A DNA stretch of 39,099 nucleotides. Origin: a virus. Lineage: Duplodnaviria; Heunggongvirae; Uroviricota; Caudoviricetes. The stretch is from the IMG/VR virus record IMGVR_UViG_2537561603_000005; one strand, 5' to 3'. The position numbers and the translations under genes are program-made. A model generated the notes under the pieces. It did no database searches. It was not told the DNA's origin and saw only the letters and a program-made list of their open reading frames with translations. Positions 30,730 to 35,947 of the stretch are shown one piece after another (the stretch's first letter is position 1; every line of letters starts with the position of its first letter).

Positions 30730-31280
30730 CCCTGACCCCGCATCAGCGCGCCCTGTTGCAGTTACTGCCTGACGGGCTGGCATGGGACAAGCGTCCGTCA
30801 TCCGTACTGGCATCGTTATGCCTGGGCCTCAGCCATTCGACAGCGCGTGTATCCTGGACGGGTAAACAGCTGCTTGCCGAGCGTTTCCCTGACACGTCTC
30901 GCCTGCTGCTGGAAGACTGGGAGCGTTATCTCGGCCTTCCTGAATGTGATATGGCCGGAGCCACCATAACGGAGCGACAGCGTTATGCCGGAAATAAATA
31001 CCGGATGAAGCCCTCGCTGAACCGTGAATTTTATATCCGGTTTGCGGCGGAGTTTGGTTATCAGATTGACATTCAGCCATCACCGGATTCGCAGTGGGTC
31101 AGTATTGTCACGATTAACAGTGAAACCGGCTACCGGAACATGAATGTGCTGGATGATATTCTCACGCCGCTGCGTATTTATGAAGGCGGTGCGCTGGAAT
31201 GTATTCTGAATCGTTATAAGCCTGCATGGCAGACGTTTATTTACGTGTATGCAAACAGCCACGAAAAGGAGAATATTTAA
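30720..31280 (+). CDS. tail protein (Mu gp48, P2 gpI-like)
   Basis: 186 aa directly upstream of the tail fibre gene with TAATG junction. Confidence 0.65.
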
Positions 31281-32161
31281 TGTTTCATGTTGATAATAAT
31301 TCCGGCGTGGCGAATATGCCTGCGCTGGCACCGGCGCAGAGTAATACCACCACCTGGTTTACCGAAGGTGACGGACAAAAAGGTATCAGCTGGATTGGTC
31401 AGGACTGGCTGAATATTCTCCAGGCCGAACTGCTGAATATTCTGGCTGAAGCCAGTATTCAGCCGGATAAGGCGCAGTTAAACCAGCTTACGCTGTCCAT
31501 TAAAGCCATTATCGCTGCGAATGCCTTTTCCCGGAAAAATAACCTGAAAGAAATTGCTGATGCCGGAACGAAAGCACAACAGCTTGCCCGTGGTTATCTT
31601 GGTCTGGGGGCGCTTGCCACAAAAAACAGTCTTGGTCCCGGTGACGTTAATGCCCTGGCGAAGGATCAGAATCTGGCCGACCTGGAGAATACGGGAACCG
31701 CCCGTAATAATCTGGATGTTTACAGCAAAAGCGAGGGTGATAACCGTTACCTGCGCAGGGAGCAGAACGGCGCAGACATTCCGGATAAAGGGGCTTTTAT
31801 CGATAACGTCGGTTTACGGGAAACGGTAAACAGGGCGGCGAATGCCCTGCCATCGAACGGAACGGCCGTTGCCGCGAACAGGCTGGCAAATGCCCACACA
31901 ATTAATGGTGTTCCCTTTGACGGGACGCAAGATATCACTATCTCATCAGGAACAGTAACCGCCATAACACTGGGGTCGGTGACCGCACATATGCCCGGAA
32001 CATGGGAAAGCTGGGATCTGAATCTGGGGGGCGGCAATGTTCTTACCGGAATTAAAGTACAGGATGTAGGTAAGAATACGGCAGATAACGTCGGCGGCGT
32101 GTATTACCGGCCGTTGCAGTATCTGTTAAATGGAGCATGGGTGACGGCTGCAAGTATATAA
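31280..32161 (+). CDS. S: tail fibre protein (constant N-terminal part plus currently expressed variable C-terminus)
   Basis: ATG after AAGGAG; 3' third enters the invertible segment at about 31810; C-terminal 70 aa differ from the alternative segment on the opposite strand. Confidence 0.75.
31797..31822. other. gix-like recombination site (left)
   Basis: TTATCGATAACGTCGGTTTACGGGAA; reverse complement resembles the recalled gix/hix 26-bp consensus (TTCCTGTAAACCGAGGTTTTGGATAA). Confidence 0.6.
31810..31950. repeat. inverted repeat, left arm (about 70-bp perfect core 31810-31880, then degenerate)
   Basis: Reverse complement matches 33062-33132 exactly and 32990-33062 with mismatches; confirmed by identical peptides in antisense ORFs of the track. 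Confidence 0.8.
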
Positions 32162-32169
32162 TGATATTC

Positions 32170-32194
32170 AGAAGGCCTTCCGGCCTTCTTTATT
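32170..32194 (+). terminator. hairpin terminator between convergent tail-fibre and tfa genes
   Basis: GAAGGCC-TTCC-GGCCTTC then TTTATT. Confidence 0.5.
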
Positions 32195-32715
32195 ACTGTG
32201 GCTGCTCAGGCCATTTAATGGCGTTAAATTCAGCTTCAGTTTTAATGGCGGGTAATACCATTTTTTTCACCTGACTGATGTATGCCATCCATCTGGTAAG
32301 TGTGGCTCTGTCTTCATCACTGATGGTGCCCAGTTGCAGCTCTGTTCTCCAGTCATTAATTTGTTCATATGCCTGATTAAGATATGACTGACGTAGTGCT
32401 TCCGCTTTTTTGTCGTAGTTGACCGGAAGCTGTGAGATGACGACATTATCAAACTTCCAGTTTCATGAAATATCCGTTCCGTTCAGGGAGTTCGTCGGTC
32501 TCAACCACGGAGAACCCTACAGGATACAGCGCCGAGGCATCCTGTGATATTGAGCAGATAATGCCGCTGTCAGGTGTTATACAAAGTTTATATTTTTTGG
32601 TGAATAATGGCAGGGACTCGTAGAAATCCTTACCATCTTCACTCTGAAAATACTGTACATCATTACCATAGGGTTTGTGTTCCGGGTCATATCGCTTAAC
32701 GTTGATTAGTTCCAT
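32193..32715 (-). pseudogene. tfa: tail fibre assembly protein (Tfa), frameshifted
   Basis: N-terminal half is ORF 32449..32715 (SEDGKDFYE...YPVGFSVVETDELPE); Tfa-like C-terminal half (KFDNVVISQLPVNYDKKAEAL...QLGTISDEDRATLTRWMAYISQ...IKWPEQPQ) continues in the +1 frame from about 32459 to a TAA at about 32193. Confidence 0.6.
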
Positions 32716-32801
32716 TTTTCACCTGTATTTTATATAAACCCAACCGATGATATATTTGTTTGTCTGCGGGTATTACTGATATTTCACAGAATACATAATA
32801 C

Positions 32802-33132
32802 TTACCCTGAGATGGTTCTCCATGAGCCTCCAATATAAATCAGAACAGGTTTATATCTTATAAATTCCATTTCATCTCCACCATCCACATGCGTTACAAC
32901 ACATCCTTCAGGGGCTGTCGTCGCGGTCTGTACTGCTGCTCCAAGTTTCATATCCTGTACATATCTACCGTCTGCGGTTGACTGCGTCATCCCTGACGTA
33001 ATGTTGATATCCTGTGTTCCGTCAAAGGGAGTCCCATTAATATTTCTTGGGGTGGCAAGTTTATTCGCGGCAACGGCCGTTCCGTTCGATGGCAGGGCAT
33101 TCGCCGCCCTGTTTACCGTTTCCCGTAAACCG
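32802..33132 (-). CDS. alternative tail-fibre C-terminal segment (silent in this orientation)
   Basis: Minus-strand frame continues from the right inverted repeat ([23 protein letters not shown]...) into MTQSTADGRYVQDM...GGSWRTISG and stops at 32802; in frame with the fibre after inversion. Confidence 0.55.
32990..33132. repeat. inverted repeat, right arm
   Basis: Partner of 31810-31950. Confidence 0.8.
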
Positions 33133-33145
33133 AGGTTTTCAGGAA
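33120..33145. other. gix-like recombination site (right)
   Basis: TTCCCGTAAACCGAGGTTTTCAGGAA with central GA dinucleotide; close to recalled gix consensus. Confidence 0.65.
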
Positions 33146-33210: not shown

Positions 33211-33783
33211 ATGCTGATTGGGTATATCAGGGTGTCAACAAATGACCAGAATACGGCGCTACAGAGAAATGCGCTGGAATGTGCAGGATGTGAGCTGTTT
33301 TTCGAAGACAGAATAAGCGGTAAGACAAGGGAACGTCCCGGCCTTAAACGCGCATTAAAGCGACTCCGGCCAGGGGATACCCTGCTGGTCTGGAAACTGG
33401 ATCGTCTTGGACGTAGTATGCAGCACCTTGTCCTTTTAACAGAAGAACTCCGGCAGCGCGGCGTTAACTTCCGCAGCATTACGGACAATATTGATACATC
33501 CACTCCCATGGGACGTTTCTTTTTCCATATAATGGGCGCACTGGCGGAAATGGAGCGGGAACTCATTATTGAACGTACACGCGCGGGTCTTGCTGCTGCC
33601 CGTGCTCAGGGGCGTCATGGCGGCAGACCTCAGAAACTGACAGAGAAAGAACGGGAGCAAATCGCCCGTTTGCTGGCTAATGGCGAGTCCCGTAAACAAA
33701 TTGCACTGATATTTGATATTGGCCTTTCCACCCTTTATCGTTATTTTCCTGTCTCATCGGCTCCGTCACCAAAAGTACCGTGA
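33211..33783 (+). CDS. gin: serine DNA invertase (Gin/Hin/Pin family)
   Basis: N-terminal catalytic motif MLIGYIRVSTNDQNTALQRNAL with active-site Ser; C-terminal HTH; adjacent to the inverted-repeat-bounded segment. Confidence 0.9.
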   Translation: MLIGYIRVSTNDQNTALQRNALECAGCELFFEDRISGKTRERPGLKRALKRLRPGDTLLVWKLDRLGRSMQHLVLLTEELRQRGVNFRSITDNIDTSTPMGRFFFHIMGALAEMERELIIERTRAGLAAARAQGRHGGRPQKLTEKEREQIARLLANGESRKQIALIFDIGLSTLYRYFPVSSAPSPKVP

Positions 33784-33868: not shown

Positions 33869-35947
33869 ATGTCAGACTCCCAGTGGAAAATGCTCTCCGC
33901 CATGCCCGGAGAGTTTTCAGTCAAGGTTGCCGGTGGCACGGTGGCATTTATTGAAAGTCCTTTCAGGCCTTCGGGTAATAAAGGGGGGATCACCTTCGCA
34001 GACTGTGTGATCCGCTTCAGCACGAAAGAGCCATTATGGGTAATGCCGGTATCCGGCAATCCCAGCGCAGAAATCACCAGTTCAGGCGTGACCGGCATTA
34101 TTCCGATCACATCTGACGTGGCCGGAACACTCACGCCTTCTGACTGGAATGCACCGGATAACGCCGGACCGTCTGGCGGTACAAATGGCAGCAGTACAGA
34201 GCCGGAGTATTACTATGTGCTTCCACTGGCCGGGCAGTCCAACGGGATGGCCTACGGTGAAGGGCTTCCGCTACCGGCTTCATTCGACCGCCCTGAACCG
34301 CGCATTAAGCAACTGGCACGTCGCAGCACGGTAACGCCAGATGGTACGTCGTGCACATATAACGACATCATTCCCGCAGACCACTGCCTGCATGATGTGC
34401 AGGACATGAGCGGGATAAACCACCCGAAAGCTGATCTGGCAAAAGGCCAGTACGGGACTGTCGGTCAGGGGCTGCATATTGCCAAAAAACTGCTGCCTTA
34501 CATCCCGCAGAATGCCGGGATACTTCTGGTGCCCTGTTGCCGTGGCGGGTCAGCATTCACCACCGGGGATGACGGCTCATTCAGTGAGGCCAGCGGTGCT
34601 TCCGCTGATTCTTCACGCTGGGGTGCCGGTAAACCCCTGTATCAGGACCTGGTAAGCCGCACCAGAGCGGCGCTGGCGAAGAACCCGAAAAACAAACTTC
34701 TGGCCGTGGTATGGATGCAGGGAGAGGCAGACCTTGCATCGGGAAGTCAGCAGCATAATGGTTTATTCACGACCATGGTTCAGCAGTTCAGAACTGACCT
34801 GTCTCCGCTTGCTGCGCAGTGTGTGAGAGGAAATACCACCACGGTGCCGTGGATTTGCGGTGATACCACGTATTACTGGAAAAACCTTGGCACCGATAAA
34901 TATGAGGCAGTATACGGTGGCTACAAAGGCAAGGAAGCACAGAAAATTTTCTTTGTACCGTTCCTGACGGATGAGAATGGACAGAACACGCCAACGAATG
35001 CTCCGGCGGAAGACCCGGATATTGTGGCTGTCGGGTATTACGGTGCGGCATCCCGTACCCAGGGCAGTTTTGTCTCCACACAGCGTGACAGCCATTTCAG
35101 CTCATGGGCACGCAGGGGCATCATTTCTGACCGTCTGGCCTCAGCCATTCTGCTCCATGCGGGACGCACACCTGAAGTGATGCAGGGACCGGTTGTGACA
35201 CAGCCGGATGAAAAACCATCACCTGACACGCCATCAACACCATCGCCGGATACACCCTCCACACCACCGGCTGACACCACGACGATGAGCACCCTGTTTG
35301 CTTACCGGGCATCAGAGTCTGAAGGACAGCTGGCACCACAGGGCTGGACTGCCGGAGGCGGTAAGGCCCAAATCGTGGATGATGCCGGAGCAGGTAGTGG
35401 TAAGGCCATGAAACTGACCAAGGAAACAGGCAAATCCTCCTGGTACCTTGAGCATGATGCCGGTAATGGTGCGGACCTGCTGGGTAAAGGTGGCCTTGTC
35501 AGTTGCCGGTTTAAGGTTGATGGTGCGCTTACGGCTAATCAGTACGCGATGGCGCTGTACTGGCCGGTTTCTGCCCTGCCGCAAGGGGTTACTCTGGAAG
35601 GTAATGCCGGTCATAACCTGCTGGCATCGTTTTACGTTCAGAGCGATGCCACAGACCTTAACGTGATGTACCACAAGGGCAATACGGCGCAAAACACGAA
35701 ACTGGGGTCATTCGGTGCATTTAATAACGAATGGCATACGCTGGGCTTCCGTTTTGCCGGTAACAACAGTATTGAGGTGACGCCGGTCATTGATGGTAAG
35801 GACGGGACACCATTCATGCTGTCGCAGTCTCCGGTCGGCACGTTTACGGCAGACAAGTTGCGCGTGACCGATATCACTAACGGTGCAACATACCCGGTGC
35901 TGATTGACAGCATTGTGGTGGAGGTTAATACCCCGTCAGCGGGATAA
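33869..35947 (+). CDS. SGNH/SASA-type carbohydrate esterase-like protein with Pro/Thr linker and C-terminal lectin-like domain (accessory gene)
   Basis: LPLAGQSNGMAYGE (GQSN esterase motif) about 115 aa from the N-terminus; linker PDEKPSPDTPSTPSPDTPSTPPADTT; beta-rich C-terminal domain. Confidence 0.55.
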   Translation: MSDSQWKMLSAMPGEFSVKVAGGTVAFIESPFRPSGNKGGITFADCVIRFSTKEPLWVMPVSGNPSAEITSSGVTGIIPITSDVAGTLTPSDWNAPDNAGPSGGTNGSSTEPEYYYVLPLAGQSNGMAYGEGLPLPASFDRPEPRIKQLARRSTVTPDGTSCTYNDIIPADHCLHDVQDMSGINHPKADLAKGQYGTVGQGLHIAKKLLPYIPQNAGILLVPCCRGGSAFTTGDDGSFSEASGASADSSRWGAGKPLYQDLVSRTRAALAKNPKNKLLAVVWMQGEADLASGSQQHNGLFTTMVQQFRTDLSPLAAQCVRGNTTTVPWICGDTTYYWKNLGTDKYEAVYGGYKGKEAQKIFFVPFLTDENGQNTPTNAPAEDPDIVAVGYYGAASRTQGSFVSTQRDSHFSSWARRGIISDRLASAILLHAGRTPEVMQGPVVTQPDEKPSPDTPSTPSPDTPSTPPADTTTMSTLFAYRASESEGQLAPQGWTAGGGKAQIVDDAGAGSGKAMKLTKETGKSSWYLEHDAGNGADLLGKGGLVSCRFKVDGALTANQYAMALYWPVSALPQGVTLEGNAGHNLLASFYVQSDATDLNVMYHKGNTAQNTKLGSFGAFNNEWHTLGFRFAGNNSIEVTPVIDGKDGTPFMLSQSPVGTFTADKLRVTDITNGATYPVLIDSIVVEVNTPSAG

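Follow-up and report, generated by a model that had tools for sequence, protein, structure and literature searches.

An apparent one-base interruption of the sole tail-fibre assembly gene in the invertible segment of a Mu-like prophage of Escherichia coli AA86, and the single-chaperone layout of its relatives

The DNA analysed here, referred to below as the window, is a stretch of 39,099 nucleotides that holds a complete Mu-like prophage. Transposase genes lie on the left, followed by Mor and by lysis, head, sheath, tube and baseplate genes, and Mom comes last. The tail-fibre region of this E. coli AA86 prophage is a G-type (Gin/gix-type) invertible segment, and its features are collected in Table 1. 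They follow each other in the order constant fibre part Sc, gix site, tip Sv, hairpin, tfa (in reverse), alternative tip Sv' (also in reverse), second gix site and gin.

Table 1. Features of the invertible tail-fibre segment and of its surroundings, in window positions
Feature	Position	Strand	Remarks
Tail-fibre gene (Sc + variable tip Sv), currently joined	31280..32161	+	293 aa
Left gix-like 26-bp crossover site	31797..31822		TTATCGATAACGTCGGTTTACGGGAA
Left arm, 86-nt inverted repeat	31802..31887		93% complementary to 33055-33140
GC-rich hairpin	32170..32189		AGAAGGCC-TTCC-GGCCTTCT; 8-bp stem, between convergent fibre and tfa genes
tfa (Mu U-type tail-fibre assembly), sole Tfa gene, interrupted	32193..32715	-	523 nt
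C-terminal Tfa part	32193..32462	-	NWKFDN...KWPEQPQ-stop, +1 frame; stop 32195-32193; PF02413 55.3 bits
Stretch bounded by the uncalled bases 32443 and 32465	32443..32465	-	Record versus window versus homologues
N-terminal ORF	32449..32715	-	88 aa; ATG at 32715, stop codon 32451-32449
Extra base	32481		G on + strand, C on gene strand; CTGAAGGAACGG (intact) to CTGAACGGAACGG (window)
Alternative fibre tip Sv'	32802..33119	-	Promoterless; holds uncalled base 32902
Right arm, 86-nt inverted repeat	33055..33140		93% complementary to left arm
Right gix-like crossover site	33120..33145		TTCCCGTAAACCGAGGTTTTCAGGAA; compare SfMu right boundary ...TTTCCTGTAAACCGAGGTTTTAGATAA
Gin/Hin-type serine DNA invertase, intact	33211..33783	+	190 aa; Resolvase 174.6 bits, HTH_7 53.8 bits
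Mom	37261-38193		End gene of the prophage in the window

The true start of the tail-fibre gene is the ATG at 31280, and the ATG found upstream at 31226 is not a start; a gene of the same length, 882 nt, is likewise annotated in relatives. Only one public contig, AFET01000001.1 (GCA_000211395.2), encodes the exact 293-aa fibre protein. The two crossover sites, in inverted orientation, are found where the 86-nt inverted repeats meet the outside of the segment. The left site closely resembles the SfMu G-segment boundary TTATCCAAAACGTCGGTTTACAGGAA, and both sites are close to the SfMu boundaries as well as to the invertase crossover sites tabulated in PMC4134206. The invertase gene is annotated as "recombinase family protein" in relatives. 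When the segment was inverted in silico, Sc was joined in frame to Sv', which gave a fibre of 286 aa, and the start of tfa came to lie 86 nt downstream on the same strand. An adjacent serine invertase, 26-bp gix-type sites and an in-frame exchange of tips, all expected of a Gin/Cin/Pin-type segment, are present. Both orientations were seen among the relatives. The convergent fibre and tfa genes are separated by a gap of 31 nt between the end of the fibre gene and the tfa stop; the original prediction had correctly seen a hairpin in this gap, to which it attributed a length of 38 nt. The hairpin is likely a bidirectional terminator.

To the right of the invertase, positions 33869-35947 encode a 692-aa SASA (sialate O-acetylesterase-like) and DUF6645 protein, followed by DUF1378 and DUF826 genes. 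This stretch extends between the invertase and Mom, and its arrangement is kept in E. coli relatives; in SfMu, by contrast, com comes directly after the invertase. At the right end of the window, the ORF at 38317-39099 (minus strand) corresponds in the source record to a gene of 260 aa with PapC_N/Usher domains, beyond which lie PapD-type chaperone and fimbrial subunit genes. A length of 260 aa is short for a fimbrial usher. The arrangement suggests that the Mu-like prophage, whose end is near 38200, transposed into a fimbrial usher gene.

The segment has much in common with the G segment of Mu (S/U, S'/U', Gin) and with that of SfMu. In all of them a serine invertase adjoins the segment, inverted 26-bp gix-like sites lie inside the fibre gene, the segment encloses two alternative C-terminal tips and leaves out the constant N-terminal part of the fibre, and the chaperone is Mu U or a homologue of it. 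The fibre is shorter here (293 aa, compared to 488 aa in SfMu), and the spacer ahead of tfa, which is 1-2 nt in SfMu, ranges from 51 to 121 nt in the family to which the window belongs. Mu and SfMu have two chaperone genes, one per tip, as shown by the gene content of Mu, in which each orientation has its chaperone (PMC11915804), and by the annotation of SfMu; the original prediction was right on this point. The window departs from that rule, with one chaperone gene behind Sv' only and a hairpin in the place of the second. The Phi1, Phi2 and Phi4 segments of EC958 have very similar 26-bp crossover sites, the one of Phi4 being TTATCGAATACCTCGGTTTACAGGAA (PMC4134206). Both orientations of the EC958 segments co-exist in culture, and these segments are built as mirror-image pairs, each with a major fibre gene and its cognate downstream minor gene (PMC4134206), whereas the single-tfa family is asymmetric.

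As printed in the window, the sole chaperone gene is moreover interrupted. As first noticed from the window, the Tfa-like gene of the minus strand is split, with an N-terminal ORF that stops at 32449 and a C-terminal domain that continues in the +1 frame. Residues 1-78 of the 88-aa ORF match Tfa homologues, its last 10 residues (RNGYFMKLEV) are out-of-frame sequence, and taken alone it gives zero Pfam matches. The C-terminal part, for its own expression, has no usable start codon ahead of an internal Met at 32288. Relative to Mu U (5YVQ chain B), the tfa frame printed in the window is broken after residue 78, and no full-length product is encoded. A tblastn search with the repaired protein described below and with both SfMu Tfa proteins returned this one locus and no second Tfa-family locus in all 39,099 bases, which bears out the earlier claim that the gene is single.

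Once G32481 was removed and positions 32443 and 32465 were read as in the homologues, tfa encoded a Caudo_TAP protein of 173 aa, a typical length among 150 homologues. The repaired product scored 67.1 bits with PF02413, for a curated cut-off of 22.1. It is colinear with Mu U (5yvq_B), residues 3-151 aligning with 4-162 (E = 5.4e-16), and this alignment spans the lesion and crosses the conserved motif SGNWKF/SGKWMF, which the shifted frame destroys. The PF02413 score, the colinearity with a solved member of the family and the place of the gene directly behind a same-strand fibre tip all agree with a Caudo_TAP gene. The uninterrupted ORF of about 170-180 aa that such a gene should have is absent from the window, where 523 nt are found with a frame change at 32481; this discrepancy may be an artefact, given the uncalled bases in the source record. 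From its sequence, the split gene is classified as a predicted Mu-U-type Tfa.

To locate the interruption, the gene was aligned to intact tfa homologues, which are 522 nt long and encode 173 aa; three of them were aligned base by base. The alignment revealed one base too many in the window, and placed it unambiguously at 32481; in the direction of the gene, it precedes by 16-36 nt the interval 32445-32465 in which an indel had been suspected. The breaking of the tblastn match at 32482/32480 agrees with this position. A close homologue of tfa, annotated as tail fiber assembly protein, was found in 37 of 5,426 complete E. coli genomes. Among the E. coli matches listed, 29 of 30 are one base shorter than the window across the aligned span, and the 30th offsets the missing base by a gap of 32 nt, instead of 31 nt, after the tfa stop. 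The STEC299 allele equals the window over some 220 nt around the lesion, save for the extra base and two uncalled positions. Elsewhere in tfa there are no further stops or indels, and protein identity to intact relatives is 93-94%. None of the homologues ends naturally at residue 88, the few short ones being contig-edge fragments or genes frameshifted elsewhere.

On the gene strand the extra C falls between an A and a G, and is therefore not a change in the length of a homopolymer. Homopolymer-length errors are the commonest errors of 454 sequencing. The extra base also creates the 11-mer GAACGGAACGG at 32474-32484, the only other copies of which are found at 31855-31865 and 33077-33087, one in each arm of the inverted repeat; this makes 3 matches in the window, for 0.02 expected by chance. 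The match to the arms could be a coincidence, a templated mutation or a correction artefact.

The window was then set against its source record, AFET01000001.1 (GCA_000211395.2), the 2011 draft genome of E. coli AA86. Three overlapping pieces of the record were compared, which cover window positions 2522-39099 and 6.8 kb beyond, 43.4 kb in total. They differ from the window at 32443, 32465 and 32902 only, where the record has N and the window has A, A and C. These three are the only non-ACGT positions in the 43.4 kb, and the 1.3-kb invertible segment contains all of them. The extra base at 32481 is 16 nt from the uncalled 32465 and 38 nt from the uncalled 32443; by our own estimate, two out of three uncalled bases would land no farther than about 40 nt from any one chosen site in 43 kb with a probability of around 1e-5. 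Every homologue has a C on the plus strand at 32465 and at 32443 (GGA and GGC, both Gly), whereas the window has an A at both. The downstream frame is closed by a TGA at 32463-32465, whose T is position 32465. As 32465 is uncalled in the source, this TGA is not a called codon there, and the in-frame stop arose when the ambiguous base received a definite letter. More generally, ambiguity codes in source records can silently become definite bases and yield stop codons that were never called. For the third position, 32902, no close relative of the Sv' tip that could serve for comparison was found in the 5,426 complete E. coli genomes. A diversity-generating retroelement, which might have produced the ambiguous positions, was discarded as an explanation, since the gene lists of the prophage suggest no reverse transcriptase.

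On balance we lean towards the view that the split of tfa is a consensus or sequencing error, and that the real gene would be an intact tfa of 173 aa. The extra G32481 would have been introduced within a short stretch where the consensus of the 2011 draft was unreliable. The AA86 segment may have been hard to assemble because its reads came from both orientations, as in EC958; it would then have been poorly covered, mixed orientations breaking assemblies and closure being made with few reads. In EC958, the invertible prophage segments showed clustered substitutions and indels when a 454 draft was compared to PacBio, and these were traced to reads from both orientations (PMC4134206). Invertible fibre segments are thus known trouble spots for consensus quality. 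An artefact is favoured because the uncalled bases cluster at the lesion, because tfa is devoid of other decay, and because of the EC958 precedent. Two points count against it: the extra base does not alter the length of a homopolymer, and real lesions of the module are common in relatives. Of the 1-nt sequencing error proposed at the outset, the supernumerary base is confirmed by the comparison with the 522-nt homologues, and the error itself is favoured, not proven. No independent assembly of AA86 was found in the collections searched.

Alternatively, the extra base may be a real, recent and strain-specific mutation that makes tfa a pseudogene in AA86, which we regard as somewhat improbable though far from negligible. 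The prior for a true pseudogene is not small, because real lesions are common in the same module of other members of the family. Several short-read assemblies hold close homologues that are frameshifted at other sites (P0051, P0115), the extra base is unlike a typical homopolymer error, and the 11-mer that it shares with both repeat arms makes a templated mutation conceivable. Against a pseudogene, two of the three uncalled bases are no more than 38 nt away from the lesion, a proximity not easily accounted for if the lesion had nothing to do with consensus quality. No sign of relaxed selection is seen in tfa beyond the extra base and the uncalled positions, its protein identity to intact relatives being as high as reported above. 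In addition, the lesion allele was found nowhere else: the product of the 88-aa ORF had no exact match in a collection of 15 billion proteins, and scans of metagenome and viral contigs did not return the allele. A scan of genome contigs with a conserved 20-mer gave a sole match, a chance one in Pedobacter. In the control made with the intact allele, there was none in viral contigs, and the one metagenome match had no similarity to the window beyond the 24-mer. Should the mutation be real, the flipped Sc-Sv' fibre would be without chaperone, the phage would be defective in the flipped orientation, and the switch would be decaying in AA86 only.

We consider it improbable that the extra base and the three uncalled bases reflect a mixed template, that is two tfa alleles or a collapsed paralogue, in which case the printed sequence would be chimeric. 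In other E. coli, as many as 4 places in a genome match tfa, and collapsed repeats together with mixed orientations produced such clustered discrepancies in EC958 (PMC4134206). However, the uncalled base 32902 sits in an Sv' tip that has no close relative among the complete E. coli genomes, which makes a paralogue covering it unlikely, and the window contains no second copy of tfa.

Finally, the original prediction offered the option that Tfa is made by a frameshift. Synthesis of a full-length Tfa by programmed +1 ribosomal frameshifting, which would take place where the two frames overlap by 12 nt (AAACTGGAAGTT), perhaps at GUU UGA as in prfB, is a reading that we hold to be hardly credible. 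It is formally conceivable, since the zero-frame stop UGA is preceded by GUU_U and a +1 slip there reaches the Tfa frame. Yet the homologues examined share the nucleotides of the overlap and encode one continuous ORF (172-174 aa, with greater lengths where the start had been called farther upstream), so the two-frame layout is not conserved, and the frame change originates 16-30 nt upstream, at the extra base that is absent from every relative. The shifted product also exchanges the conserved GTDISGNWKF, shared with Mu U, for RNGYFMKLEV. The overlap contains no X XXY YYZ slippery heptamer, the RNA that follows it does not exceed its shuffles in stability (z = -0.71) and thus offers no stimulatory structure, and there were zero Rfam matches. 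Programmed frameshifting was rejected on the comparison of homologues, the RNA fold and Rfam.

The presence of a single chaperone gene had been taken as abnormal, and as the possible mark of a decaying switch. We read 11 related loci, 10 from E. coli chromosomes and 1 from a Stx-phage record, the latter being a diverged Mu-like element (65% Tfa identity). All 11 show the layout of the window, with fibre, hairpin, convergent tfa, second tip and invertase, and each has exactly one tfa, intact and encoding 173-174 aa. A single chaperone behind Sv' is therefore the normal layout of this phage family, and not decay. The hairpin between tfa and the convergent tip is present in all relatives, in two different sequence versions. 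Seven of the 11 loci are oriented as in the window and 4 are flipped. NCCP15648 and FORC_043 have common protein accessions for Tfa, the recombinase, YmfQ and baseplate J, and their segments are in opposite orientations; because these two differ in orientation, we consider the switch to be active in the single-tfa phage family.

The Sv and Sv' tips are paralogues, both ending in a YYRPxQ...NGxW.T.S-like motif. The Sv tip is 45% identical to the tip of SfMu gp52, which is followed after 2 nt by a chaperone gene of its own, whereas the homologous Sv tip here has none that is co-transcribed. Scans for sigma-70-like promoters in the window and in three relatives gave no more matches than shuffled sequences, and hence no sign of an independent tfa promoter; nor was a conserved sigma-70-like site found upstream of tfa in these four sequences. 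STEC299 and the Mu-like element of the Stx-phage record have similar tips; measured against the repaired window protein, Tfa identity is 94% for the former and 65% for the latter. Tfa would thus not appear to track tip type closely, as judged on 11 loci, which are too few for a test. How one Tfa goes with two alternate paralogous tips could be explained in two ways, Sv being independent of the chaperone, or tfa being used in both orientations by way of an unrecognised promoter, and we put these forward as tentative and rather unlikely proposals.

Some members of the family have lost the switch. One and the same deletion, with a common junction in M3, M1, M18 and another genome, removed most of gin and Sv' (L001 2697-3000, L016 2697-3000). 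This deletion locks the fibre in its Sv form, and the convergent tfa is still intact. The tfa genes of the locked derivatives differ at 7 synonymous and 9 non-synonymous codons. The intact state of tfa in these derivatives is a weak hint, read from sequences, that tfa might matter in the convergent orientation too.

A number of variations were noted along the way. The Sv' tip of the window (32716-33010, with the spacer) is shorter than every other tip in the comparison, and has a C-terminal motif, IRYKPVL...GGSWRTISG, that differs from the YYRPxQ pattern of the family. In FORC_043 the silent Sv tip is frameshifted (L008). The recombinase of STEC2017-197 is annotated as frameshifted, and the fibre gene of SCU-171 is broken (lesion loci L013 1455-1945, L012 3054-3655). 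Four relatives (L012-L015) carry a different Sv' tip, behind which some 35 nt correspond to the 3' end of a STEC299-type tip (compare L005 3225-3310); this remnant of about 35 nt looks like the scar of a tip replacement by recombination. All this concerns the 120-121 nt ahead of tfa in these four; past the remnant, the spacer shows conservation along 86 nt and includes a palindrome, CTGAAATA-N4-5-TATTTCAG.

We conclude that the frameshift in the window is either an error of the draft assembly or an ordinary pseudogene confined to one strain, and that it is evidence neither for recoding nor for a decaying switch. No description of the single-chaperone layout was found in the literature searched, which is thin evidence for its novelty. 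The asymmetric layout with a single chaperone is genuine and conserved, a variant within a known type of segment, and this conserved combination of one chaperone with two tips constitutes a natural test of the dependence of fibre tips on Tfa.
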